This document shows, piece by piece, positions 6,687 to 63,964 of a stretch of DNA of 64,000 nt. The DNA is from a virus, in the IMG/VR virus record IMGVR_UViG_3300045988_114702. One strand, written 5' to 3'. Under the pieces are notes generated by a model that saw only the letters and a list, made by a program, of their open reading frames with translations, ran no database searches and was not told the DNA's origin. The position numbers and the translations under genes are program-made. Positions within the stretch are counted from its first letter, which is position 1; the number at the start of each line of letters is the position of its first letter.

Positions 6687-7644
6687 AGTGCTTCATGCTG
6701 AATTTCACATAGCATTCAGGGCACATATAAGCCACCCGCTCCGGGTTATCACCACGCTTTCTGCGCAGGAGCAGGGCGTACATTTCTTTCATGGGCTGGT
6801 ATTTGCCACAGACCGTGCAGTGCTCCCACAAACGACTTTTCTGCACATCAGATGGAATTCTCTGAAGGAGGGGCTGCGGCTTCTCTCGCCGCATACTCTG
6901 AACGCCAACCACGTTTTCCATGCTACTTCGCATGAACACCGGCGTTCCAGCTGCATCTGCCGATGTCAGAATATCCTGTATCCATCCAGCCTTTGGAATA
7001 ACCTTTCCGGCATTTTGGCCTGTCTCCGCTCCAATAACTGCCCATTTCAGCTTTCGGAACGTTTTTGTTGCATCGCCTTCAAACGGTCCGAGAAGCGGCT
7101 CTATGGCTACGAACGTATTATACTTTTCGTTTGCCCACACACTGTCTGACAGAATCGTTGCGGTAGAGCCGTACCAGAAATTGTTTTTCTGTGGAAGTGC
7201 CCCATGGTTTGCAAGGTTCTGATATCTCACCGGGTACTGCGTCAAGAAAATGTACTGGTGCTGGGGTGCCATTTCGGCCGCAGCGAATACCTGAAGAATC
7301 CAATCTTCCGGCACCCACGGACCAAACAAGTCGCCGTCCGTGCATACCATGATGGTTGAGCCCACTTTGACCTTTTGTGGCCAATCCATGCGATACTTAT
7401 GTATCGTGGGCATAAATCCGGTTGGGTTGTTCAGAAAGCGGTTATTTGTGGTTTCCCATGGAGCGTCCAGCTCAAAGAGGTTCGCTCCGACCTGCTGAAC
7501 CTTCGGACGTTCTGCAAGATTTCGTCTCCAGTCGCTGGCAAAGCGTAAAGCGCTCTTTTTTGCGTAGCAATATCGGCAGTCTTTCAGACATCCTGTTACA
7601 GGATTCCATGCGTAATCCGCCAATTCGTTTTTTGTTCTGTTCAC
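6655..7644 (-). CDS. phage Gp37/Gp68 family (DUF5131) protein with C-terminal zinc ribbon
   Basis: The N-terminal WNPVTGCLKDCRYCYAK is the family signature. CTVCG...CPEC lies at the C-terminus. Confidence 0.7.
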   Translation of the reverse strand: MNRTKNELADYAWNPVTGCLKDCRYCYAKKSALRFASDWRRNLAERPKVQQVGANLFELDAPWETTNNRFLNNPTGFMPTIHKYRMDWPQKVKVGSTIMVCTDGDLFGPWVPEDWILQVFAAAEMAPQHQYIFLTQYPVRYQNLANHGALPQKNNFWYGSTATILSDSVWANEKYNTFVAIEPLLGPFEGDATKTFRKLKWAVIGAETGQNAGKVIPKAGWIQDILTSADAAGTPVFMRSSMENVVGVQSMRREKPQPLLQRIPSDVQKSRLWEHCTVCGKYQPMKEMYALLLRRKRGDNPERVAYMCPECYVKFSMKHFEKGEKEDEV

Positions 7645-24268: not shown

Positions 24269-25294
24269 ATGGGATTCAGGTATAGAAAAAGCATTCGGCT
24301 TGGTGGTGGGTTCCGCATCAATATTTCTGGTAGCGGTGTTGGATACTCATGGGGTGTTCCCGGGTATCGAATCACCAAAACAGCGAACGGAAAAATCCGG
24401 CAAACCGCCTCCATCCCGGGAACCGGACTGAGTTATTCGACCGAGGAATCCATTTATAAATCTGCACGAAAAAGCGCTCTAAAAGAAGAACCATATACAG
24501 ATACGGAAGTTATTCAATCTACCGACCGCGCAGACTATAAAAATTCCGACTTCAAGGCGCTTATGAAGCGAATCAACCGGGTTTGCTTTCTCAATAAAGC
24601 ATCATTTATCGTTGGAGCTATCAGCCTGCTCGCTTTCATCGTTCTTCATACACCGCAGCGGCTTTTCCTGACCATTTTATCATTCATCATATTTCTCTAT
24701 GCCCACTATATTGCTCCTGTAAATTTGGAATACGACTTCACCGATGAACAGTTTGATGCCTACGAAGAATGGTATAACGCTTGGCGTAAATTATTTGCCT
24801 GTGATGCCGTTTTCTATGTACCCGAAACCCACACCAACAGCAGCGCAAAAAAGAATGGCGGTGCCGAGAAAACCGTATCCGAAGAAAAAGCTCTCGGAAT
24901 GCCTGCACTCCCCTATTTTCTCAGAACAAATGTGCCTGTTTTTTCGGCCGCTCTGAATAAGAAGGAGTCCATTTATATTTTCCCGGATAAGGTGTTCTAT
25001 CTCCACAATAGCAAAATCAGCGCATACGACCTTTCGGAGGTCTCTTTCAATGTCGATTCTGTCAACTGTGTCACGGATCAGGAGCATCTACCGGCGGATA
25101 GCAAGGTGGTCAAAGAAACTTGGCTCCGGGTCAATGCCGATGGTTCCCCCGACCGACGCTATAAGAACAACAAGAAATGCCTTGTCTGCGAATACGGCAG
25201 GCTGCGCATCCGCTCTGACAGCGGACTAAATATTTATTTTCTGCTTAGCAATTCCGACAACGTAGACCAGTTCAAGGCAATTCTTCCACAATAA
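24269..25294 (+). CDS. DUF4236 domain membrane protein (lysogeny-region moron)
   Basis: MGFRYRKSIRLGGGFRINISGSGVGYSWGVPGYRI signature, plus two hydrophobic helices. Confidence 0.75.
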   Translation: MGFRYRKSIRLGGGFRINISGSGVGYSWGVPGYRITKTANGKIRQTASIPGTGLSYSTEESIYKSARKSALKEEPYTDTEVIQSTDRADYKNSDFKALMKRINRVCFLNKASFIVGAISLLAFIVLHTPQRLFLTILSFIIFLYAHYIAPVNLEYDFTDEQFDAYEEWYNAWRKLFACDAVFYVPETHTNSSAKKNGGAEKTVSEEKALGMPALPYFLRTNVPVFSAALNKKESIYIFPDKVFYLHNSKISAYDLSEVSFNVDSVNCVTDQEHLPADSKVVKETWLRVNADGSPDRRYKNNKKCLVCEYGRLRIRSDSGLNIYFLLSNSDNVDQFKAILPQ

Positions 25295-25357: not shown

Positions 25358-26470
25358 ATGCCCTGCTATAAAGACGAAAAAACGGGAACTTGGTATTGCC
25401 AGTTTCGATATACTGATTTCACCGGAGCGCAGAAGCAGAAGCGCAAGCGCGGCTTCAAAACCCGCCGCGAAGCGCAGGAGTGGGAGCGGGAATTTCATCT
25501 GCAGAAAGCCAAAAGCTGTGATATGACACTTGCCAGCTTTGTGGAGTTATACTTCAACGACCGGGAGCATCATGTCCGTGGCACCACAATGGACACTAAG
25601 CGAAATATTTTTGACACCAAAATTGTTCCGCTTCTCGGAAACCGGAAAATGAACGAAATCACAGCCCTGGACATTCGAGACTGGCAACAGCGGGTCAAGG
25701 AGATGGGCGAAGCCACTGGTCTGCCTTATGCGGAAACGTATCTCTATACCATTCATGCACAGTTGACTGCCCTCTTTAACTATGCCCAGACATTCTACGG
25801 TCTGCAATTCAATCCGTGCGATGCAGCCGGCTACATGGGGTCCTCTATCGCCGGTGAAATGCTTATCATCACAAAAGACCAGTACGAGATTTTACGAAAA
25901 GAATTTCGCAATGAGGCCTATCTTCTGGCATTTGATATTCTATTCTGGACAGGATGCCGTGAAGGTGAAATGTTGGCGCTGCTGCCGAAAGACCTGACTG
26001 ATGATGACCAGTTGCGAATCTATAAAACTTATCACCGGAAAAAGGGTCAAGACATTCTCGGCCCCACCAAGAATAGCAAAAAGGGCGGCAACAGAAATGT
26101 GCCTATCCCCCATTGGCTGGCAGAAGAATTTCGTACCTACTGTTCTAAACTATACGGCCTGACCCCAGATGACCGGGTATTTTACATGACCTGTACAGCC
26201 CTCAACAAAGAATTGACCCGCTGCACCCAGATAACCTATCTGCCGGACATTCGTGTCCACGATCTTCGGCACAGCCACGTTTCTCTCTGTATCGAACTTG
26301 GGTACTCTATTGTTCTGGTGGCCAAGCGGATAGGGGATACTGTTCCTGTTGTCATGCGGACATACGCCCATCTGTACCCCAATAAGCAGCAGGAACTCGT
26401 GTCAAGGCTGGAAACTCTCAGTACTTCCTCTTCCTCCAAGGATGAATCCGATTTGATGCCACTCGTCTAA
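25358..26470 (+). CDS. int: tyrosine site-specific integrase with N-terminal arm-binding domain
   Basis: HDLRHSHVSL...RTYAHLY catalytic region. The N-terminus is MPCYKDEKTGTWYCQFRYTD. Confidence 0.9.
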   Translation: MPCYKDEKTGTWYCQFRYTDFTGAQKQKRKRGFKTRREAQEWEREFHLQKAKSCDMTLASFVELYFNDREHHVRGTTMDTKRNIFDTKIVPLLGNRKMNEITALDIRDWQQRVKEMGEATGLPYAETYLYTIHAQLTALFNYAQTFYGLQFNPCDAAGYMGSSIAGEMLIITKDQYEILRKEFRNEAYLLAFDILFWTGCREGEMLALLPKDLTDDDQLRIYKTYHRKKGQDILGPTKNSKKGGNRNVPIPHWLAEEFRTYCSKLYGLTPDDRVFYMTCTALNKELTRCTQITYLPDIRVHDLRHSHVSLCIELGYSIVLVAKRIGDTVPVVMRTYAHLYPNKQQELVSRLETLSTSSSSKDESDLMPLV

Positions 26471-29240: not shown

Positions 29241-29572
29241 TACAGCTCACCTCCCATAAACAGAGTTTCCAGCACGCTCACACGCTCTTCCAGAGAGGGC
29301 GCAGCTTCATCAGCGGTCGTCCATGCTTCTGCATAGACCCACCAATCATCAGCCGCCGCCGTGATGCTTTCCACGGTTTCCTCTGCATAATCGGAACCCA
29401 ACTTGCAAAGAGCCGTGGTGCACTCCCACGAAGTACCGCCCTGCTCTCCTTCGGGAGCCTCGGTTCGTACCTCATGAGCGTCCTTACGCAGGTACAGCCA
29501 AGCCGTACCGTCCGGCAGTTTTTCCAGCGTTACCGCCTGCGGATTATGGTCAAGGTTCTCGGTAAAAATCAT
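29240..29572 (-). CDS. hypothetical acidic protein
   Basis: 110-aa ORF with an ATGA overlap with the RT stop. Confidence 0.6.
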   Translation of the reverse strand: MIFTENLDHNPQAVTLEKLPDGTAWLYLRKDAHEVRTEAPEGEQGGTSWECTTALCKLGSDYAEETVESITAAADDWWVYAEAWTTADEAAPSLEERVSVLETLFMGGEL

Positions 29573-30846
29573 GCTGCTATCCTCACTTTCTTCATTGCAT
29601 TTCTTTGTGTCGTTACGCGGATTGCTACTTTTGCGGCCGTGAACAGCTTTTTCTGTTTTAGGGCTTCGCTGATTGCACGAGATTTTGTCCAGTCAAAATA
29701 GCCGTTATAGCTGACCAGCTTGTATGACCGCCAGACCGGCACATATCCATTTCGTGAAACATCAGCCTTGGCTCGAATGTACTGCCGCCGAGCCCTCAGA
29801 AAAATTCTGGGGCGTATCGTGGTGTAGGTACGGTGCATCACATAGCCAGCCATATCCAAACCCGGGCATCCTTTTGCCGCTCCCGTTAGGTGTCTGCGTT
29901 GATGCTCTTCAGCGGCGCTAAGAAAGTCCACACGAACCCACTCGTTTTTTATTGTCAATCCCAGTTCGGTCAGCGCCCACTTAGTCAATTTTCGGGCTGC
30001 ACTCTGTATGTCAGCCCATCGTCGGCCAAACAAAACAAGGTCATCCATATAGCTACCGCTGCGGATCACGAATCGCGTGGATGCTCCACGGCGAATCTTT
30101 GCATAACTCATGACCTTGACCAGCATATAGCTGGCAACAAGGTTAAAAAGCCACGCTTCAAGATAGCCGCCGATAAGCAATCCCTCACCCGGAGCCATTG
30201 CTAAAAGACATTTGACAACAGCCAGAAGCCATGTTGCTCCCGGGATTTCTTTCTGCAGGATCTTCATCACAAGTTCCTGTTTTGTGTGGGCGTATGCCCC
30301 CTGCACATCCAGCTTTATTGCATACTGTATGCCAAGACTTTTTCTGCGAAGCCAACGCTCGACTTGACGCTTCAAAGCGATTTGTCCCTTGCCGGGAATA
30401 CTGGCAAATTGATACGGCAACAGTTTTGCCTGAAGCAACGGGCGAAGTCCAAGTACCGCCAAATGCCCAAAAGCTTGGTGCATTGGACAGCAGTTAGACA
30501 GTTCCCGCCGTTTCATGCTGATTCCATCAATTCTGTAGAACACGCTCACAGGGTCAAGATCAAGGTCGTCTGTTTCTCCGTCCAACAAATCTTCTATCCG
30601 TTGCTCCATTTCAAGAGCAATCCCATTTACGGCTTCTAAACGCGGGTTCCAGTCGTTTACGCGGGCGGCGCTCGATAGTTGTGCACGGCTTACACCTCCA
30701 TATTTTTCCACCGTAGCGAGGTAATCCCGGCGGAACCATTTCTTATCAAAAGCTTCAAGGACAGCACGCTCGCACATTTCATGATTGAGCGACAAGTACC
30801 TCTTTGTTTTCATATCCTTAAAGCCTCCAAACTTGCTGATGTTCAA
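29569..30846 (-). CDS. reverse transcriptase (DGR-type)
   Basis: SYMDDLVLFG (YxDD) motif, with fingers/palm layout. It is adjacent to the TR/VR pair. Confidence 0.85.
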   Translation of the reverse strand: MNISKFGGFKDMKTKRYLSLNHEMCERAVLEAFDKKWFRRDYLATVEKYGGVSRAQLSSAARVNDWNPRLEAVNGIALEMEQRIEDLLDGETDDLDLDPVSVFYRIDGISMKRRELSNCCPMHQAFGHLAVLGLRPLLQAKLLPYQFASIPGKGQIALKRQVERWLRRKSLGIQYAIKLDVQGAYAHTKQELVMKILQKEIPGATWLLAVVKCLLAMAPGEGLLIGGYLEAWLFNLVASYMLVKVMSYAKIRRGASTRFVIRSGSYMDDLVLFGRRWADIQSAARKLTKWALTELGLTIKNEWVRVDFLSAAEEHQRRHLTGAAKGCPGLDMAGYVMHRTYTTIRPRIFLRARRQYIRAKADVSRNGYVPVWRSYKLVSYNGYFDWTKSRAISEALKQKKLFTAAKVAIRVTTQRNAMKKVRIAA

Positions 30847-54145: not shown

Positions 54146-54222
54146 TGGTGCTGGAGGTGGGGATTGAACCCACAGCCTGACGGTTACAAATCGCCTGCTC
54201 TGTCCTATTGAGCTACACCAGC
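54146..54222 (-). tRNA. tRNA-Thr (anticodon UGU), CCA encoded
   Basis: Hand-folded cloverleaf: acceptor GCTGGTG, T-arm GTGGG-TTCAATC-CCCAC, anticodon loop TTTGTAA. One acceptor mismatch and one anticodon-stem mismatch. Confidence 0.8.
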
Positions 54223-54229
54223 GTAAAAG

Positions 54230-54302
54230 CCGAGGGTACCGGGCTCGAACCGGCGGTCTGGGAGTCAAAGGCCCATGCCTTATCCAACTTGGCCAACCCT
54301 CG
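54230..54302 (-). tRNA. tRNA-Gln (anticodon UUG), no encoded CCA
   Basis: Acceptor CGAGGGT/ACCCTCG, D-region GCCAAGTTGGATAAGGC, loop CTTTGAC, T-arm GCCGG-TTCGAGC-CCGGT. Confidence 0.8.
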
Positions 54303-54305
54303 ATA

Positions 54306-54381
54306 TGGAGCAGTCAACGGGGCTTGAACCCGCGGCATCCTGCTTGGAGGGCAGGCGCTCTACCAACTGAGCTATGACTGC
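54306..54381 (-). tRNA. tRNA-Gly (anticodon UCC), CCA encoded
   Basis: Acceptor GCAGTCA/TGACTGC, anticodon stem CCTGC/GCAGG with loop CCTCCAA, T-arm GCGGG-TTCAAGC-CCCGT. Confidence 0.9.
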
Positions 54382-56995: not shown

Positions 56996-58438
56996 TCATA
57001 TCAGACTGCGCACATCAAAGATGCCGCCCTCATACAGCGCAAGAGCTACCGCGTCAGCGCGGTCAGGACTGGTCAGGCCGCGCTTCTTCAAGGCATCCTT
57101 GCCTTCAAGTTTCAGCTTCAGTGGTGTGCCCGCGAAGATGTATTTACGGGTGGTAAGTTGTCCTATCAGGGTTGAATCGTTCGGGATATGTAGGGTGCCT
57201 GCCGTGGCCATATCCCGTAGGACTGCCCACATCCACGTTGCGATATCTGCATAGCGCCCGGCGGCTTCCTTGTCCGGCACGGCGCTGGAGAAGTTCACCG
57301 GCACGACCATCAGCTTGGTTAGCTTCTGCCGAATCTTTTCTCGGTTGAGAATGTCGGTCACGCCGCCGCCAACGCCGGTGTCATCAATGACCGCATAAAT
57401 CAGGCCGCGGTACTGCGGATACGCTGCACGCAGGGCTTTATATATCGCAATGATATCATCTGCCGTAGCGTACAGGTCTTGACCGTGGCGTGTGACCAGC
57501 TTTTGGATATCTCCATCAATGTTCTGTGCAATGGCCGTATCATCGTTGCCAAAGCGGGCAACGTCACACCCGATGGATATCCGGGCTGGAGAACAATGTT
57601 CCAGAGGTTCAGTATTGACAGCCTTTGTGGCGAGTGCCATCGGAATAAAGACATCGTCCTCATTCTCCGGGAACTCTCCGTCAACACGGACACGGACTAC
57701 ATTGCTGTTCTTGCCGAACTTCCGCTCCAAGTCAGCGATATTCTGCTTATTCGTGCGGGGGCTGTCCCTGCTGGACACCTTCATACAGTAGTAGGACTGG
57801 GCGTCCACGGTATGCGAATCGTGGAATGTGCCAGTGTTCTGCGTTGGGTTTCCGCACATCAGTAAGCGGTTGTTATCGCCGGAAAGCGTGCCCTGTATAG
57901 CCTCCATGATGGGGTCAGCAACACCAGATGCCTCATCCACCACGAAAAGCATATTGTCTTCGTGGAAGCCCTGCATATTCTCCGGCTTGGTGGCTGTTCG
58001 AGCCACGGCGAACCAGCGTTTCTCATGTCCTCTCATGTAAACACGAGTCTTTGTCCATACAAGCATAGCCTGCAAGACAGGGCTGCGTTCCTGCCACTTG
58101 GCAATCTCGGCCCAGAGGACATCATTTAACTGCTGACGAGTCGGAGCCGTGCACACCACGCGTGGATACGGGAAGCAGGACAGAAACCAAAGGACTAGGT
58201 TCGCTTCAAAAGCAGTCTTGCCAACGCCCTGTCCTGAGCGAATTGAAACCTTGCGGTGTTGTGCAATAGCTGTGGCGGCTTCTTTTTGCCACGGATCAGG
58301 CGCAAAGCCAGTCACCTCCGCAAAGAATTTGCAGGGATTTTTGCGGTACAAGGGCACCCGCCGGGCAAAGACTTCACGTTGCTTCATCGCCATCGTCTGC
58401 GCCCTCCGATTCCGCATCCGCGGCTTCAACGGCCGCAA
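56996..58438 (-). CDS. terL: terminase large subunit
   Basis: Walker A SGQGVGKT and FVVDEASG Walker B-like motif, with a nuclease half. The exact start is uncertain. Confidence 0.85.
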   Translation of the reverse strand: MRPLKPRMRNRRAQTMAMKQREVFARRVPLYRKNPCKFFAEVTGFAPDPWQKEAATAIAQHRKVSIRSGQGVGKTAFEANLVLWFLSCFPYPRVVCTAPTRQQLNDVLWAEIAKWQERSPVLQAMLVWTKTRVYMRGHEKRWFAVARTATKPENMQGFHEDNMLFVVDEASGVADPIMEAIQGTLSGDNNRLLMCGNPTQNTGTFHDSHTVDAQSYYCMKVSSRDSPRTNKQNIADLERKFGKNSNVVRVRVDGEFPENEDDVFIPMALATKAVNTEPLEHCSPARISIGCDVARFGNDDTAIAQNIDGDIQKLVTRHGQDLYATADDIIAIYKALRAAYPQYRGLIYAVIDDTGVGGGVTDILNREKIRQKLTKLMVVPVNFSSAVPDKEAAGRYADIATWMWAVLRDMATAGTLHIPNDSTLIGQLTTRKYIFAGTPLKLKLEGKDALKKRGLTSPDRADAVALALYEGGIFDVRSLI

Positions 58439-59216
58439 CCCAATCGTCTACCAACTCGTTCTTGCCGCTGTTGCTCATTCTGCGCAGGTCGGCAAGCTGT
58501 TGTATCACCTTGGACTTCTGGCGCTGTACATCGGTCAATAGCCGCTCTAAGCGTTCCACGATAAGGTAGCTTGATTCAATGGTGGTTGATGTTTCTACGG
58601 TGGTGCCGGGGAGCCTTTCTTCCCGACTGACTTTGGCATCTATCCGCTCAATGTAGACCTCCTTGTCGTGGGCCTCTTTTTCCTTATCCTCATCCAAGCG
58701 GGTAAACGACCGGCTGGACTTGGATGTGTGCACCGACTGGATGTGCTGCTTTTTTTCCTGGACTGCGGAAATGCGCTGAAGCAGAAAAGCCTCCCGGGCA
58801 GTCAGCAGTTGAAGTTCCTGTATCAGCAGATCTTCTGCATCCACATCCTTCGTGCAGTCCTGAATGGCTTTTTGGTTTTCCTCTGAAAAAGAGCCAAACA
58901 TCACCGCAGACCAGCCACCGTGTTTCAAGGCATTCTGGTTACCCGGCGGCGCGCCTCCATGGTTGCCAACTGCATTGACATTACCCAGCGGTGCACCCGG
59001 CTTTGGCTTGCCATCCTGCGGGGCTTTCTGGGTGCATTTGGAAGATGCACCCTTGGGGTGCGGCGGGGTGCGTTTCTTGGGTGCACCCTTTTGTGCATCC
59101 CAATAGCGCTTCTTCCACGATTTCACAGTGTTCGGCGATACGTCCAGCTTCTTTGCGATTTCGGTGCATCCCATCCCTTTCTTATAAAGGGTGAACGCCT
59201 TATCTCGCTTTTCCAT
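58374..59216 (-). CDS. terS: terminase small subunit (N-terminal HTH)
   Basis: KKGMGCTEIAKKLDVSPNTVKSWKKRYW, located directly upstream of terL. Confidence 0.7.
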   Translation of the reverse strand: MEKRDKAFTLYKKGMGCTEIAKKLDVSPNTVKSWKKRYWDAQKGAPKKRTPPHPKGASSKCTQKAPQDGKPKPGAPLGNVNAVGNHGGAPPGNQNALKHGGWSAVMFGSFSEENQKAIQDCTKDVDAEDLLIQELQLLTAREAFLLQRISAVQEKKQHIQSVHTSKSSRSFTRLDEDKEKEAHDKEVYIERIDAKVSREERLPGTTVETSTTIESSYLIVERLERLLTDVQRQKSKVIQQLADLRRMSNSGKNELVDDWVAAVEAADAESEGADDGDEAT

Positions 59217-59283
59217 CTACATCGCCACCACTATCCTTCTTCATTTTCTGTCCCGGTATCTACCCGGGCTGTTGTGTTGTTCC

Positions 59284-59320
59284 GAAGAAAAAGCGCCGAC
59301 CCTTTGTAGAGCCGGCGCCG
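59284..59320 (-). terminator. hairpin plus T-run after the QueT-like gene
   Basis: On the minus strand: GCGCCG-loop-CGGCGC followed by TTTTTCTT. Confidence 0.45.
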
Positions 59321-59329
59321 CGTCCCCTC

Positions 59330-59791
59330 TCACACGACCTTTGCGAGAGCGGTTTTAGAGATCATCAGGTTTCCCAGTTCCACGGCCAGGAATGTGCCCG
59401 CGAACAGGCCAGCACTTGTCAGCCAGAACGGCGCGCCGACCATCATAGACAGCTCCACACCGATGAACAGAGCCACGGACAGGGAGAGAATAACCGCTTT
59501 CCACAGAATCCCCAGCTTTTTCCACGGCCCCCAGACCACCAGTGCGTATGCAGTCCCCTCAGCCAACAGACCAAAGAGCACATCGACCGGGCCGAAAGGA
59601 CTCGTTGCGTTTGCGATTGCAATTCCCAACAGCACCGCCGGGGCATACCGTTTATCCTTGAACGGGAGCGCACACAGCATATTGGCCACGCGGAACTGCA
59701 CAGCTCCCCAGGACAGCGGGTTCAGGGTAGTTAATGCGACATACAGAGCCGCGACAACTGCAGTTTGGCAGAGGGCTTTGGTGTTTTTCAT
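59330..59791 (-). CDS. queT: QueT-like queuosine-precursor transporter (ECF S-component type membrane protein)
   Basis: TAVVAALYVALTTLNPLSWGAVQFRVANML...KDKRY matches the QueT pattern, with about 5 TM helices. Confidence 0.7.
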   Translation of the reverse strand: MKNTKALCQTAVVAALYVALTTLNPLSWGAVQFRVANMLCALPFKDKRYAPAVLLGIAIANATSPFGPVDVLFGLLAEGTAYALVVWGPWKKLGILWKAVILSLSVALFIGVELSMMVGAPFWLTSAGLFAGTFLAVELGNLMISKTALAKVV

Positions 59792-59805
59792 GTTCCCTGT
59801 CCCCC

Positions 59806-60117
59806 TCATACCATAACGACCACATTACCGTGGGGTGCGTCATTCACCGCGGATTCGACCATGATCCAGCTGGGGTGCACTTCCTCAACCAGCTTTTTCT
59901 TCAGCTTGCTGGCCGCTTCCTCGATGACCAGGCTTTCACCTTCCAGACATTCGCGGATGAACTTGTCGATCTCGCAGTAGTCCGGGATAATCTCTGCCGG
60001 CTCCATGGTCACGGTAAATTCATTGGTGTAGTCTGCCTTTCCGATGGGGCAGAAGCACCGGCATTTCTGCTTGTAGACGATTTTTCGCACGCCGTAGCGA
60101 TTTTCAAACTTAGCCAT
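59806..60117 (-). CDS. small QueF-like / T-fold protein candidate
   Basis: The 104-aa product has CFCPIGKADYTNEFTVTMEPAEIIPD, which parallels the QueF segment CP.TGQPDFATI.I.YIPD. The downstream QueF motif is not conserved. Confidence 0.4.
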   Translation of the reverse strand: MAKFENRYGVRKIVYKQKCRCFCPIGKADYTNEFTVTMEPAEIIPDYCEIDKFIRECLEGESLVIEEAASKLKKKLVEEVHPSWIMVESAVNDAPHGNVVVMV

Positions 60118-60976
60118 TGTTTTCTTCTCCTTTCGGCTTCTGAACGATGAACAGCAGTTCTTTTGCCTCACGCGGGAACGGAATCGCCATAAAGGCTGTG
60201 AGGAATGCAGACGGGACATAGGCTTTCATGCGGGTGTAGAAGTCCCGCAGTGCCGGTTCCTGCTTGGAATAGAACTCGTCCATCTCCCGGACGCTGGTGA
60301 CCAGACCAACCTCCTGCACAATGCTGAATCCGATTTCGGCCAGCTTGGCTTTCAGTTCATCGTAGCCCCACTCATAGACATGAGCGCGGTACTGGGTCTG
60401 ATACCCATTGCCCGGGGTGTTCGGACAGGAGAGAAACATCTTTGCACCCGGCTTCATCACCTTGTAGCATTCTGCAAGGCTTTTTGCGCCGTCCGTAGGG
60501 TGCATATGCTCAATGGCAGAGGTGTAAATCACAAAATCGGCAAACCCCGCCGGGATGACTTTCGACATCTCAGCAACGTTGCCCAGCTTCCAACCCACCC
60601 GGAACGGGTAGTAGGAAGTCAGATCTTTAGGTTCAAGGTTCTTTGCGGTTGCGCCGCGCATAGCCTCTTTGATGTTCGCTTTGCTGATGTCTACGCCGGT
60701 ATAGGATGCAATATCCTTTGCGTAGTAGCGCAGCAGCGGGAGCATCAGAGAGCGGCCGCAGCACACATCCAGCACGTTCATGCCCTTTTTCGCCATGTGG
60801 GCGGCGGCAAGGTGCTGGATATAGTTCATTACGTCCAGATTGGTGAAGAAACCGTCTCTGAACTGCATATAAAAATTCCGCATCTGGTAGGTGGTGCAGA
60901 GAATTTTTTCTCTGTCCATGCCATCCTCAACGCGGTATACGATATCTTTATCCACGCCATTTTCCTTTCGTATCAA
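60110..60976 (-). CDS. class I SAM-dependent methyltransferase
   Basis: MNVLDVCCGRSLMLP (motif I), SYTGVDIS and FADFVIYTSAIEHM. The start is uncertain. Confidence 0.8.
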   Translation of the reverse strand: MIRKENGVDKDIVYRVEDGMDREKILCTTYQMRNFYMQFRDGFFTNLDVMNYIQHLAAAHMAKKGMNVLDVCCGRSLMLPLLRYYAKDIASYTGVDISKANIKEAMRGATAKNLEPKDLTSYYPFRVGWKLGNVAEMSKVIPAGFADFVIYTSAIEHMHPTDGAKSLAECYKVMKPGAKMFLSCPNTPGNGYQTQYRAHVYEWGYDELKAKLAEIGFSIVQEVGLVTSVREMDEFYSKQEPALRDFYTRMKAYVPSAFLTAFMAIPFPREAKELLFIVQKPKGEENNG

Positions 60977-61697
60977 GGTACTTCTGGTATTTGATCCACT
61001 CTTTCAGCGCATACTCTCGGCGAATCCGGTAGTCTGCGCCTATCATGCCCTTCGGGGGTCTGACCACAACCATTTCTGAGCCGTTGAAGTAGGACAAGCC
61101 GCCAAAATTGACCTGTGTAGTCCATGTGGTGCTATCCACGCTATAAAAGCCAAAGTCAACCGCGTCCTTTTTGGTGTAGCCCAGACCGTGCACCCGCACC
61201 CCGCAGGCGTTCGCATACTGCACCAGCCGTTTGATGTAGCCGTACTCGCTGGGCTGAATGTGCTTGATTGCGAAGCCGCCGATGCCGATATAGGGATAGT
61301 CCCTGCACAGGCGCTTGAACTCGTCAAGGCCGCGGGAGCGGTGCCAGACGGGAATGCTCTGCTTGCCCGTTTCGGCTTCAAGGCGGGTTCTCATGCGCTT
61401 TACCGCATCATAACCTACGATGATATCTACGTCCAACTCGAAGAAGTGTTGCACGTTGTGGCGGTTGATGAAGCCGATATACCTGCTCAGGTACCCGTCC
61501 CAATCCACTGGCTTTGATGAAGCCTCTACCCCGTGCATAAACGTGAATGCCCCGCTGTCGAGCAGGAACATCTTCCACTTCGGCATTTCCTCGACCTGCC
61601 ACGGCTTGATATAGAAAAAGCTCTCCAGAACGTACTCCGGCCTGTTTTCCCGCACGATTTTCTCTGACGGGAATGTTCCCGCCAAACACAGCCTCAT
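60948..61697 (-). CDS. dpdA: DpdA-like (TGT-superfamily) DNA-guanine transglycosylase candidate
   Basis: FLLDSGAFTF (compare TGT DSGGFQ), FELDVD, VHGLGYT and FYSVDSTTW (compare the TGT second catalytic Asp region). Confidence 0.6.
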   Translation of the reverse strand: MRLCLAGTFPSEKIVRENRPEYVLESFFYIKPWQVEEMPKWKMFLLDSGAFTFMHGVEASSKPVDWDGYLSRYIGFINRHNVQHFFELDVDIIVGYDAVKRMRTRLEAETGKQSIPVWHRSRGLDEFKRLCRDYPYIGIGGFAIKHIQPSEYGYIKRLVQYANACGVRVHGLGYTKKDAVDFGFYSVDSTTWTTQVNFGGLSYFNGSEMVVVRPPKGMIGADYRIRREYALKEWIKYQKYLDTKGKWRG

Positions 61698-62281
61698 GTT
61701 TCAAACCATTCTCCGCAGTGCGGGCACTGGATAAGCTTAGAGCCGCTCTGTTGCGCCGTAGCGGGCTGAAAAGGTGCAGGCTGTCCAGATTGCTGGCTTT
61801 CGGGGTCCGGGCCTGTATCGGTCGCTTTGGGCGGCTGTTGGGCAGGCTCCGTGAAAAACTCCTCAAAATCAGAATCGTCCACATCCCGGAGCAGACCATC
61901 AAGTTCCACTTCGCTGAAGCCAGTGCTGCTCAGATCTACATCCAGCGCCTGCAATGCATCCATTTCGGCGCGGAGCACATCATCATTCCAAGAGGATGCC
62001 TCTGCCACCTTGTTGTCTGCAATGCGGTATGCCTTAATCTGCGCGTCCGTCAGGTCATCGACCCGGATGCAGGGCACTTTGTCCATGCCCAGCCGTTTTG
62101 CGGCCTCATAGCGGGTGTGTCCGGCAATGATCGTGCCTTTTCCATCAATCAAGATGGGCACCCGGAATCCAAATTCCTTGATGCTTTGGGCTACCGGACC
62201 AACGGCTGCTTCGTTGTTTCTGGGGTTGTTCTCATAGGGATGGATCTGCGAAATATCCTGATACACTACTTGCTGATTCAT
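61694..62281 (-). CDS. ParB N-terminal (ParB/Srx) domain protein with C-terminal zinc knuckle
   Basis: IHPYENNPRNN...ILIDGKGTIIAGHTRYEAAKRLG. ATGA overlap with the DpdA-like gene. The ATG at 62281 has an RBS. Confidence 0.8.
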   Translation of the reverse strand: MNQQVVYQDISQIHPYENNPRNNEAAVGPVAQSIKEFGFRVPILIDGKGTIIAGHTRYEAAKRLGMDKVPCIRVDDLTDAQIKAYRIADNKVAEASSWNDDVLRAEMDALQALDVDLSSTGFSEVELDGLLRDVDDSDFEEFFTEPAQQPPKATDTGPDPESQQSGQPAPFQPATAQQSGSKLIQCPHCGEWFET

Positions 62282-62359
62282 TTTTTCTCCCTTCTTTGCT
62301 TTTCCGCTGGCGTTGCGGAACAAATTAGGGAGCGGCGGTATCTTTCCTCCTTTCTGGGC

Positions 62360-62394
62360 ATAAAAATACCCGTCCGGTGGCGAAACCGGGCGGG
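62360..62394 (-). terminator. hairpin plus T-run in the leader upstream of the ParB-like gene
   Basis: On the minus strand: CCCGCCCGGT-TTCGCC-ACCGGACGGG followed by TATTTTTAT. Confidence 0.45.
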
Positions 62395-62425
62395 CAATGC
62401 GCTATGATTAGAATTTTACGGTATT

Positions 62426-62472
62426 ATTGTACCACTTTTGCCGTGACGCGTCCATGACATCTTTTTGACATC
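62426..62472 (-). promoter_or_regulatory. candidate promoter (TGGACG-17-TGgTACAAT) abutting a GATGTCA-N4-GATGTCA dyad
   Basis: -10 element at 62426-62431 and -35 element at 62449-62454. GATGTCA copies at 62455-62461 and 62466-62472 (minus strand). Confidence 0.35.
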
Positions 62473-62475
62473 GGA

Positions 62476-63051
62476 CTAAGACATTTCCAATGCGTCGATA
62501 CCAAACATCAGCATCGAGATTTTATCCACTGCTGCATCATGGTCACGGTAAACCTGCCGGGCGCTCACGTTTTCCTGCATCGCGATCTGCTCCACAGGCT
62601 TGGCAGTCTCGTCAATGTACATGGCCTTGATGATGCGCAGGCCCCGCTTCAGAGCTTCATTGTCGCTCTGGGCGCAGTAGGTTTCGTACAGGCCAAGCAT
62701 TGCATCGATATGGCGAATCATGATTTTAGTGCGCCGGCAGCTGTTGCGGATGGATTCAACCGTAATGGCATTGTTCCGCTGGAGCATCATGTCCAGCAGT
62801 TCCAGTGCGGTTTCTTCCTCCTGACCATCATGTTCGCCAGCCTCGTCCGTATAGACCGCACCCGTGCAATGTTTTTTGAACATCCGGTAGTTCTTCAGGA
62901 GCAACTTCGTGTTCCGCAACCGGCGGTCACACCGGCCTGCGGCTTTACGGGCCTGCTCGGCCACAACTTCCTTTGCACCCTCGCGGGCAGCTTTGCGGGC
63001 AGTTTCTTCGATGAACGCCATCATATCTTCCGGGATAGTCATTTTGCGCAT
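62476..63051 (-). CDS. late-gene transcriptional regulator candidate (sigma-70 region-4-like / ArpU-RinA type)
   Basis: The C-terminal EQIAMQENVSARQVYRDHDAAVDKIS resembles a sigma region-4 HTH. It sits upstream of the packaging genes. Confidence 0.5.
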   Translation of the reverse strand: MRKMTIPEDMMAFIEETARKAAREGAKEVVAEQARKAAGRCDRRLRNTKLLLKNYRMFKKHCTGAVYTDEAGEHDGQEEETALELLDMMLQRNNAITVESIRNSCRRTKIMIRHIDAMLGLYETYCAQSDNEALKRGLRIIKAMYIDETAKPVEQIAMQENVSARQVYRDHDAAVDKISMLMFGIDALEMS

Positions 63052-63143: not shown

Positions 63144-63836
63144 TCAAATTGCGCTCATGCGGCGGGAAATTTCGCTCTGGCTCAAAACGGCCAGCGGCTG
63201 GCGGGTAATGCCGCGCTCTGCTGCCATCTTAGCCGATACGGCCTCCATTGCCCGCAGCATATCTGCCCTCTGGGCTTCTGCGGAGCCGCCGGGCAGGATA
63301 TGATCTTTGCTTTCCCGCATATCGTTGATTTTGAGTTCTTCCTGCAAAGCCTGTTCCGAACAGCGGCGAAGCAGTTCCATTGCATAGGCTTCACCGTCCT
63401 GCTCTACCCATCCGATGTACTGCCGGTAGTTATCCAGCGTTTCCTGTTTCAAGCGGGCAAGCCGTTCCTTGCCGAAGCCGAAGGTCAGGTGCGTTGTTGC
63501 CGCCATAACCAGCCAAGCGATCTCTGCGCCCTCGTTCTGGGCCATGCGGAGCTGCTCTTCCCTGCGGTTGCGCGGAGCCTTGGTCTGCGGAAGCCGGACC
63601 TCAAAATCACAGATGCCTTTCAAGTCCTCCCGCATGGCATCCGTTGCACTCTTGCGGTTCTCGGTCAGGATTTTTGTCCTATACCGCTGCTGAAACTCGT
63701 GCATCTCATTACAGGCCCGCTCCAAGCGTGTGGCTCCAATGCCCTCTTCCTGGTGCATAGCCACCACCATACACCAAGTGAAGATCTGCGCCGCCTTATC
63801 CCGTTCATCAGCCCGCTGCTGGCGAATATTCTTCAT
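63144..63836 (-). CDS. hypothetical protein with an internal two-fold duplication
   Basis: IFTWCMVVAMHQEEGIGATRLERACNEMHEFQQRY parallels IAWLVMAATTHLTFGFGKERLARLKQETLDNYRQY. ATGA start at 63836. Confidence 0.55.
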   Translation of the reverse strand: MKNIRQQRADERDKAAQIFTWCMVVAMHQEEGIGATRLERACNEMHEFQQRYRTKILTENRKSATDAMREDLKGICDFEVRLPQTKAPRNRREEQLRMAQNEGAEIAWLVMAATTHLTFGFGKERLARLKQETLDNYRQYIGWVEQDGEAYAMELLRRCSEQALQEELKINDMRESKDHILPGGSAEAQRADMLRAMEAVSAKMAAERGITRQPLAVLSQSEISRRMSAI

Positions 63837-63964
63837 CTGTTTTGCCATCTCCAATCTTTGCATCCGAAAATTTTTGCCAGGATTTTTTTGTGCTTACTGC
63901 AATCCCAGTAGTTCTTGCACCACCGACACTGACCATTGCACAGGAACGACAGATGCGCTTTCAT
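63833..63964 (-). CDS. small Cys-rich protein (43 aa)
   Basis: ATG at 63964 follows AAAGGAGGG. Product: MKAHLSFLCNGQCRWCKNYWDCSKHKK.... Confidence 0.4.
   Translation of the reverse strand: MKAHLSFLCNGQCRWCKNYWDCSKHKKILAKIFGCKDWRWQNR

Follow-up and report, generated by a model that had tools for sequence, protein, structure and literature searches.

Modification of DNA with 7-deazaguanines is an established anti-restriction strategy, of which several versions are known. In phage 9g and the Queuovirinae, DpdA1 acts together with FolE, QueD, QueE and Gat-QueC to give dG+, and 9g DpdA puts 7-deazaguanine into DNA and gives protection from restriction (PMC6884629). Cellulophaga phage phiSM and Vibrio phage VH7D combine DpdA2 with QueF and DpdM to form mdPreQ1 (PMC10516641), while the bacterial system, DpdA-DpdB-DpdC, contains a transglycosylase, bDpdA, that requires a ParB-fold ATPase (PMC10164549). 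Phage YhhQ transporters have likewise been described (PMC6884629, PMC8310023, PMC10516641), as have ParBc proteins beside phage DNA-modifying enzymes (PMC12783734); a large group of phages with 'DpdA only' has been put aside as 'difficult to predict' (PMC6884629), and no QueF-L of a phage had been noted (PMC10516641). On the side of tRNA, the Crenarchaeota make archaeosine with arcTGT and QueF-L (5jyx/5k0p; PMC5485725). Here we compare these systems with a cassette at positions 59330-62281 of the IMG/VR virus record IMGVR_UViG_3300045988_114702, the whole 64,000-nucleotide stretch of which is called the window in the following. The cassette consists of five co-oriented minus-strand genes, overlapping or abutting, which run from 62281 to 59330 just upstream of terS and terL:

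61694..62281, minus strand: ParB_N-domain protein, 195 amino acids
60948..61697, minus strand: short DpdA-type guanine transglycosylase, 249 amino acids
60110..60955, minus strand: class I methyltransferase dependent on S-adenosylmethionine (SAM), 281 amino acids from GTG 60955; longest reading frame from TTG 60976
59806..60117, minus strand: T-fold protein resembling QueF-L, here QFL, 103 amino acids
59330..59809, minus strand: QueT, the S-component of an energy-coupling factor (ECF) transporter; reading frame of 159 amino acids, likely start ATG 59791 giving 153 amino acids

We put the probability that this cassette is a DpdA-type, salvage-fed module for DNA hypermodification at roughly 0.7. 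The reading is carried by the identities and folds of the encoded proteins, the coupling of their genes, the absence of de novo synthesis genes from the window and the exchange of supply genes among related phages.

An initial annotation, made from the letters of the window alone, had described the gene arrangement, and its observations are correct apart from two start-codon details. The five open reading frames (ORFs) lie on the minus strand at the positions given, and direct reading of the sequence bears out both the ATGA at 61697-61694 that couples the ParB stop to the DpdA start and the 8-nt overlap of the methyltransferase stop with the QFL start at 60117-60110, ATGGCTAA. The reported overlap of the DpdA and methyltransferase genes had been drawn from TTG 60976, which only opens the longest ORF. 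We dropped this start, since homologues are annotated with 281 (most frequently), 277-278 or 268-269 amino acids, which favours GTG 60955 as the most likely start, or else ATG 60919; with GTG 60955, GTGGATAA would overlap the DpdA stop (60950-60948) by 8 nt. For QFL and QueT, an ATGA overlap is possible at 59809-59806; in most public gene calls QueT has 153 amino acids and thus starts at ATG 59791, behind the ribosome-binding site GAGGGGGA, with a 14-nt gap and no overlap. The five genes are syntenic in 63 IMG/VR contigs, and in dozens of related contigs all of them are under purifying selection, with ratios of nonsynonymous to synonymous substitution rates (dN/dS) of 0.03-0.29; QFL is the fastest-evolving and the methyltransferase the most conserved (0.04-0.11). 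The arrangement is therefore no chance pattern of ORFs.

The DpdA-like transglycosylase and its presumed ParB_N partner

That the second gene encodes a DpdA-like protein had been proposed from motifs, and comparisons of sequence, fold and conserved residues substantiate it. The protein matches PHROG 887 ('queuine tRNA-ribosyltransferase') at 1.8e-53 and shares 29% identity with the experimentally validated DpdA of phage 9g (pairwise BLASTP, 2e-14), in an alignment that pairs LDSGAF, IPVWH, YIGIGG, VHGLG (VHG(L/F)G across the two proteins) and VDSTTW ((V/C)DS). By tblastn against a 2.3-Gb database, 9g DpdA is matched at 8e-8, together with Mycobacterium-phage 'DpdA-like' and BASEL '7-deazaguanosine inserting enzyme' proteins. 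As Pfam (including its TGT family), NCBIfam and the PDB gave no match to the single sequence, nor the PDB to its profile, a comparison of folds was needed. The AlphaFold2 (AF2) model (pLDDT 89.7) adopts the TIM-barrel fold of the tRNA-guanine transglycosylases (TGTs), and its 19 top Foldseek matches are all ArcTGT and TGT, at E values of 1.9e-7 to 2.7e-5 and above other TIM barrels; the template modelling (TM) scores stay at 0.5-0.6 owing to its much smaller length compared with TGTs.

Among 30 homologues, down to 46% identity, the invariant residues include D47, F53, D89, D91, H119, H170 and D188; at F51, conservation is at least 90%. D47 and F51 of LDSGAF and D188 of VDSTTW line up with the 9g motifs; moreover, the spacing of D47 and F51 is that of D95 and F99 in the bacterial enzyme, and D188 takes the position of the nucleophilic aspartate (comparison with PMC10164549). 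For the middle aspartate, that of base recognition, the likely candidates are the invariant D89 and D91, in a segment that BLAST leaves unaligned to 9g. Genes for 7-deazaguanine synthesis or transport lie in the neighbourhood of the gene, and the protein presumably puts a 7-deazaguanine base in place of G in the DNA of the phage. The cassette would share with the Queuovirinae a homologous DpdA, insertion after replication and tailoring of a nitrile. Unlike in those phages, the window DpdA is about 70 residues shorter and paired with a ParB_N protein, the base would be imported since the phage lacks a de novo pathway, QFL would take the part of the Gat domain of Gat-QueC in tailoring, and a class I methyltransferase is added.

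The protein coupled to DpdA is, as had been proposed, of the ParB type: ParB_N is matched in Pfam above threshold (1.4e-7) and PHROG 620 at 3e-62, and the sequence GHTRYEA, read from the translation, agrees with the nucleotide box of ParB CTPases, GxxRxxA. Its other strong PHROG match, 498, and its sole strong match in PADLOC are to the ParB part of ParB-methyltransferase fusions; no DpdA or DpdB model of PADLOC was matched by the cassette. The gene adjoins that of DpdA in 62 of 78 species-level loci. The proposed correspondence to DpdB does not stand. DpdB is an ATPase of roughly 40 kDa with a DGQQR motif and an SspE-like C-terminal helical domain, whereas the phage protein, of 195 residues, has neither and belongs to the small GxxRxxA type that is found fused to phage DNA methyltransferases; orthology with DpdB is therefore ruled out. 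Common to the bacterial system and the cassette are a DNA transglycosylase with a ParB-fold partner and the match of D95...F99 to DSGAF (PMC10164549), while DpdC and the restriction genes DpdD-K are missing from the window. By analogy, the ParB_N protein is presumably the DNA-side partner of DpdA.

The C-terminal half of the ParB protein is of low complexity and its last residues include CPHCG. A CPxCG tail is common to the DpdA-linked ParB proteins of five distant loci (L064, L066-L069), and in the form CPxCG-x-x-(F/I)-E (61694-61730 in the window) it ends all those examined, directly ahead of the start of dpdA, which overlaps their gene. Docking to DpdA could be the role of this half zinc-knuckle.

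Precursor supply in the window and in related loci

The last gene of the cassette had been taken for a QueT transporter, and this assignment is firm: Pfam PF06177 is matched at 1.7e-27, with 96.9 bits against a gathering cutoff of 33.7, in an alignment of residues 13-150 (of 159) with positions 1-136 of the 141 in the profile, and PHROG 27044 at 6.7e-67. The cassette contains no gene for the energizing module EcfAA'T, which was not searched for in the rest of the window or the host genome; presumably, the phage QueT imports a queuosine precursor by means of the energizing module of the host. QueT and QrtT have been described as preQ1 transporters, QueT being a bona fide transporter family of tRNA-queuosine salvage (PMC11130926), and the queT of Faecalibacterium prausnitzii itself is the type example of control by a preQ1-III riboswitch (PMC11625349). 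In agreement with the initial annotation, no folE, queD, queE or queC is present in the window, nor is yhhQ: when two reference sets were compared by phmmer with --max to the ORFs of all six frames of the 64 kb, the best E value was 0.27.

The salvage dependence deduced from this absence is corroborated by other phages. In 78 species-representative bacterial genomes with prophage loci, which were compared together with more distant viral contigs (loci numbered with L), the ParB-DpdA core is followed by QueC, QueD and QueE with FolE in 28 loci, by YhhQ/QPTR in 29 (two of them with a complete de novo set) and by QueT in 9. Examples of the first two variants are:

L068: ParB-DpdA-QueC-QueD-QueE-FolE-TerL
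L066, L069: ParB-DpdA-YhhQ-(DUF6884)-TerS
L070, the cultured Fusobacterium phage phiFN37 (OR492271): ParB-DpdA-DUF6884-'queosine precursor transporter'

Supply genes that replace each other behind one enzyme are to be expected if all of them feed DpdA with a 7-deazaguanine, and the comparative pattern strongly supports precursor salvage. The cassette thereby joins the phages with a queuosine-precursor transporter beside dpdA, such as Seuratvirus, EC151, the 'DpdA-only' group (PMC6884629) and phiFN37, with which it has the core of ParB and short DpdA in common (38% identity). It differs from them in that its transporter is QueT, an ECF S-component, and not YhhQ, and in that none of them has the pair of methyltransferase and QFL; Seuratvirus and EC151, furthermore, have a full de novo pathway to which the transporter is an addition.

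Two further features of such modules were seen. A DUF6884 protein of 137-144 residues (Pfam 3e-41, with weak similarity to YaaA), absent from the window, is a recurrent accessory of ParB-DpdA, whether supply is by a transporter or de novo (L069, 7351-7764; L070, phiFN37, 6742-7176; also L107, L111, L123, L126, L137, L144 and L155). Six loci (L097, L101, L120, L134, L159 and L164) combine QueC and YhhQ without QueD, QueE or FolE, as another variant of partial salvage; either 7-carboxy-7-deazaguanine (CDG) may be imported here or a tailoring enzyme may resemble QueC.

The two accessory enzymes

What can be deduced about the 103-residue protein that had been called QueF-like? As a single sequence, QFL matches nothing in Pfam, NCBIfam, PHROGs or the PDB. 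An exhaustive profile search places it in a family of about 209 clusters at 50% identity, all of about 100 residues, and only with family profiles is the archaeosine synthase QueF-L of Pyrobaculum calidifontis (5jyx) reached in the PDB, at an E value of 7.7e-5, with Cys23 on Cys21 and Glu66 on Glu63. The AF2 model (pLDDT 87.7) is a T-fold of beta-beta-alpha-alpha-beta-beta topology, whose 12 top Foldseek matches in the PDB are all chains of this QueF-L (5jyx/5k0p). The two proteins are of equal length and superimpose with TM scores of 0.87/0.87 and a root-mean-square deviation (rmsd) of 1.4 A over 101 columns, at 22% identity. Bacillus subtilis QueF comes second (0.79/0.58; 2.9 A), followed by GTP cyclohydrolase I (FolE). 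Cys23, Glu66 and His96 are the only residues invariant in 44 diverse members. In both QueF and QueF-L, the conserved cysteine forms a thioimide with the nitrile of preQ0 (PMC5485725).

The initial assignment therefore stands at the level of the superfamily, with its T-fold and thioimide cysteine, and is not supported with regard to the QueF reductase. The NADPH motif of QueF, E(S/L)K(S/A)hK(L/Y)(Y/F/W), is absent, the matching helix reading E49-I-D-K-F-I-R-E; over the family, the consensus of this helix is without the lysine pair, more than 70% of members carry an acidic residue, and Ile stands at both lysine positions. PF14489, the QueF family of Pfam, leaves the window protein unmatched and detects 6 of the 44 relatives weakly (best E 0.0076). 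By the criteria of the family, QFL is thus no QueF-type NADPH reductase, the best match by structure and profile being the NADPH-independent amidinotransferase QueF-L. As the thioimide cysteine and the substrate glutamate are kept while the NADPH motif is missing, the substrate is probably preQ0. Judged from sequence and model, QFL is presumably a QueF-L-like enzyme that binds or converts preQ0, and an amidine or an amide is a more likely product than preQ1.

QFL occurs in independent lineages, always within deazaguanine modules and beside YhhQ, QueC and DpdA of the short or the 9g type, in these contexts:

L064, L094, L099, L118: ParB-DpdA-QFL-YhhQ
L153: DpdA-QFL-YhhQ
L159: YhhQ-QueC-QFL-DpdA, the DpdA of 9g type
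L164: DpdA-QueC-QFL-YhhQ
L158, L162: YhhQ-QFL

The same linkage to the pathway holds for loci L158-L165. Together with a complete de novo set, QFL is found in 0 of 28 modules. On one reading, it supplies the last step, which Gat-QueC carries out in 9g-like phages. In Archaea, ArcS, Gat-QueC and QueF-L are mutually exclusive (PMC5485725), and the distribution of QFL would mirror this. The cassette and the crenarchaeal pathway (PMC5485725) have in common the size, fold and catalytic cysteine position of this enzyme and its partnership with a transglycosylase, which in Archaea inserts preQ0; they differ in the archaeal substrate, which is tRNA and not DNA, in the low identity, and in that QFL has Ile for the His of the 'HE' pair and another invariant histidine, H96.

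The third gene product is a class I SAM-dependent methyltransferase, as annotated initially: the Pfam families Methyltransf_23, 11, 25 and 31 are matched above their gathering thresholds at 1.5e-12 to 5.6e-10, and motif I reads VLDVCCGRS in the translation. Similarities in NCBIfam and the PDB are generic only. Two more specific identities were rejected. A canonical DNA methyltransferase is disfavoured by the lack of DPPY/NPPY and PCQ/ENV motifs in the translation and by Pfam matches to small-molecule or generic enzymes only. DpdM, for its part, is a metalloprotein of the DUF3109/CxxxCxxCC type, while the cassette enzyme matches class I SAM families only; the latter presumably tailors the base that is inserted or imported, and is at most an analogue of DpdM, not a homologue. 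The phiSM and VH7D systems (PMC10516641) nevertheless come close in composition, with DpdA, a T-fold protein of the QueF family and a methylating enzyme, and provide a precedent for N-methyl-preQ1; unlike the cassette, these phages encode a preQ0 pathway, and their QueFs keep the NADPH motif.

Proposed pathway, alternatives and carrier phage

In the pathway that we propose, QueT and the presumed ECF energizing module of the host would import preQ1 and/or preQ0, which Faecalibacterium (see below for the host) normally salvages with its own queT. The short DpdA and its ParB_N partner, which presumably loads or positions it on DNA, possibly with use of NTP, would swap guanines of the replicated phage DNA for the imported base. 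Cys23 of QFL would attack the nitrile of preQ0, either free or in DNA, to give an amidine (G+-type) or an amide, which are the most likely products because there is no NADPH site; the methyltransferase may methylate the base or its side chain, and the modified DNA would be packaged and presumably protected from host restriction. DNA as the target, the specificity of the transporter, the role of ParB, the tailoring chemistry and the protective function are those elements of the scheme that we infer. For the final base, the sequence is compatible with several candidates: dG+ or a methylated form of it, mdPreQ1-type bases, and mixtures. The N-methylated preQ1 predicted initially is therefore possible, but it is one of several candidates, since QFL is not of the QueF type, DpdB differs from the ParB protein, and sister lineages carry the methyltransferase without the 103-residue gene.

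A more far-reaching scenario is tentative. In it, Faecalibacterium prophages would build an undescribed hypermodified guanine from a base pirated through a phage S-component in the transporter of the host, using a genuine phage QueF-L that acts on DNA or the free base, a class I methyltransferase in place of DpdM, and a small ParB_N NTPase as the obligatory loader of a minimal DpdA. Candidates for such a base are a methylated archaeosine-type base or a methylated aminomethyl-7-deazaguanine.

Several observations weigh against the salvage-fed hypermodification module as we propose it. The short DpdA, with its 249 residues, lacks the C-terminal part of 9g DpdA (317 residues) and has no sequence match in the PDB or Pfam, and its middle substrate-binding aspartate is ambiguous in the alignment to 9g. 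The enzyme of 9g needs no ParB partner, so that the role of ParB is assigned by analogy only. In QFL, Ile65 replaces the His of the 'HE' pair of QueF and QueF-L, and the aspartate found seven residues after the cysteine in QueF-L (Asp28) is displaced to Cys+6 in the window protein and to Cys+5 in most relatives; the reaction may therefore differ from those of both known enzymes, and its chemistry is insecure. QFL carries a net charge of about -3, while the aligned part of QueF-L is roughly neutral, although charge proved uninformative as a guide to whether the free base or DNA is the substrate. A preQ1-type specificity of QueT conflicts with the nitrile dependence of QFL, unless the host or another route provides preQ0. 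No feature of the methyltransferase points to a deazapurine substrate, and QFL is missing from the Gemmiger and P0180 lineages, which have the enzyme. Finally, the phage DNA could be unmodified.

Which other explanations have to be considered? QFL could be a minimal NADPH-dependent QueF that turns preQ0 into preQ1, DpdA inserting preQ1 that is either imported or made by QFL, and the methyltransferase N-methylating its aminomethyl group to an mdPreQ1-type base without DpdM. QueF is indeed the second-best structural match of QFL, and an earlier phage 'QueF-L' prediction, that of Dp-1, proved to be a reductase (PMC6884629); VH7D DpdA2 inserts preQ1, and mdPreQ1 occurs in nature (PMC10516641). The methyltransferase, too, is found solely in QueT-type modules, in 6 of 9 QueT loci and in none of the others, which gains weight from the preQ1 specificity described for QueT/QrtT and the preQ1-riboswitch control of the host queT (PMC11130926, PMC11625349). 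As it persists without QFL, it does not strictly depend on the product of QFL, and a pair of methyltransferase and QueT without QFL is what would be expected if its substrate were preQ1-derived; this would fit the initial idea of a methylated preQ1-derived base, without proving it. Nonetheless, we regard this explanation as rather unlikely. The NADPH motif that QFL lacks is kept in every validated phage QueF, and no phage QueF was reported to align with QueF-L (PMC10516641); QFL has no N-terminal extension, is nearer to QueF-L than to QueF in size and rmsd, and is left unmatched by PF14489.

It is unlikely, too, that the methyltransferase and possibly the ParB protein are unrelated passengers, either as a split ParB-methyltransferase or with the methyltransferase acting on another small molecule or RNA, so that only DpdA, QFL and QueT would form a deazaguanine system. 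The kinship of the ParB protein with the ParB domain of ParB-DNA-methyltransferase fusions (PHROG 498 and PADLOC, above) speaks for this, as do the ParBc proteins that accompany many phage DNA-modifying enzymes (PMC12783734) and the merely generic class I similarity of the methyltransferase. In one comparison, with L033, the methyltransferase gene moreover has a synonymous divergence (dS) of 0.38, against 0.75-1.6 for its neighbours in the same phage pair, which suggests separate gene flow through a recent recombinational exchange of this gene alone. Yet 56 of the 62 loci in which ParB adjoins DpdA are without such a methyltransferase, the motifs of DNA methyltransferases are missing from it, and its gene always lies inside the cassette, between those of DpdA and QueT or QFL, with overlapping or abutting junctions.

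It is very improbable that the cassette serves the tRNA and queuosine economy of the host, the TGT-like enzyme and QueT boosting or altering Q-type tRNA modification in favour of phage translation: the fold is common to tRNA-guanine transglycosylases, QueT belongs to a family of tRNA-queuosine salvage and the phage has tRNA genes, but the DpdA-like protein resembles phage DNA-modifying DpdAs and not TGT in sequence, lacks both a Pfam TGT match and the TGT C-terminal region and is nearly always paired with a DNA-binding ParB_N protein, the module is located at the packaging genes, and the phage tRNAs, for Thr, Gln and Gly, are presumably not queuosine tRNAs.

The cassette is embedded in essentially a whole temperate phage, with genes for portal, protease, major head protein, tape measure, baseplate, integrase and reverse transcriptase and three tRNA genes; the window resembles a genome of about 64 kb that is complete or permuted. 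The temperate lifestyle follows from a tyrosine integrase (PHROG 1, 7e-62; 25358-26470, plus strand), which lies with a neighbouring gene (24269-25294, plus strand) in the middle of the otherwise minus-strand window. An ORF of 425 codons near the tail-fibre region (29569-30846, minus strand) matches a reverse transcriptase family (PHROG 1423, 8e-62) and may belong to a diversity-generating retroelement. The tRNA cluster (Thr-TGT, Gln-TTG and Gly-TCC; 54146-54381, minus strand) is situated between the portal and head genes. A Faecalibacterium metagenome-assembled genome matches at 100% identity and the complete chromosome of F. prausnitzii strain 2 (NZ_CP186691, prophage at about 2.349-2.360 Mb) at 93%; proteins identical to ParB and QFL are named as F. 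prausnitzii in NCBI and occur on at least 1000 public contigs. By these sequence matches, the host is Faecalibacterium. Near-identical copies of the cassette in bins of unrelated phyla, Barnesiella (L084) and Gastranaerophilales (L085), are most likely mis-binned phage contigs. In a distant blastn search of 50,697 phage records, the cassette gave a single 126-bp match and no close cultured relative.

The features that flank the cassette are:

62362..62454, minus strand: leader of the cassette with a promoter-like site and hairpins (sequence and folding)
59284..59319, minus strand: hairpin resembling an intrinsic terminator (stem and tail), which closes the cassette ahead of terS
58374-59216, minus strand: terS (PHROG 1889, 4e-59; NCBIfam TerS, 6e-32)
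56996-58438, minus strand: terL, next to terS downstream of the cassette

The closing hairpin, already noted in the initial annotation, has a 12-bp stem with 8 GC pairs and a 4-nt loop (59319-59292), is followed by the tail TTTTTCTT and is the top terminator match of the region. At the other end, the leader starts with a promoter-like site (62454-62426; TGGACG-17-TACAAT, preceded by TG). About 25 nt behind it comes a terminator-like hairpin that is rich in GC and carries a U-run (about 62394-62362), and the Shine-Dalgarno sequence of ParB is paired, and would be sequestered, in another hairpin further downstream. The predicted minimum free energy is -47.1 kcal/mol (z = -3.4 against shuffles). 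This suggests a regulatory role: the cassette or the late operon may be switched by attenuation or antitermination in the intergenic leader (62282-62475, minus strand). No preQ1 riboswitch was found with Rfam at the gathering threshold in the whole window, nor any family at E<=1 over 59200-62520. The two genes upstream (62476-63051 and 63144-63863, minus strand; PHROG 1558 and 24484, of unknown function) accompany the cassette in close relatives. As the product of the first weakly resembles, at its C-terminus, a PHROG of transcriptional regulators (9e-6), it may be a late-gene activator that acts on the leader.

DpdA and the 103-residue protein are annotated publicly as 'hypothetical', and full-text literature searches turned up no description of the ParB-short DpdA clade, of a phage QueT, of the cassette methyltransferase or of a phage QueF-L-like family beyond one uncultured-phage protein with the automated label 'Archeaosine synthase'. 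QFL and the class I methyltransferase are thus accessory enzymes undescribed in such DNA-modification systems. A core of ParB and short DpdA with swappable supply modules and optional tailoring genes (QFL, the class I methyltransferase and DUF6884) explains many phages of the 'DpdA only' type and provides candidates for their enzymes. The carrier of the cassette is a very common prophage of the keystone gut commensal F. prausnitzii. Virome sequencing, restriction-based methods and the host range of the phage could be affected if its genome is modified, and there may be competition for queuosine precursors, a micronutrient common to the phage host and to humans.

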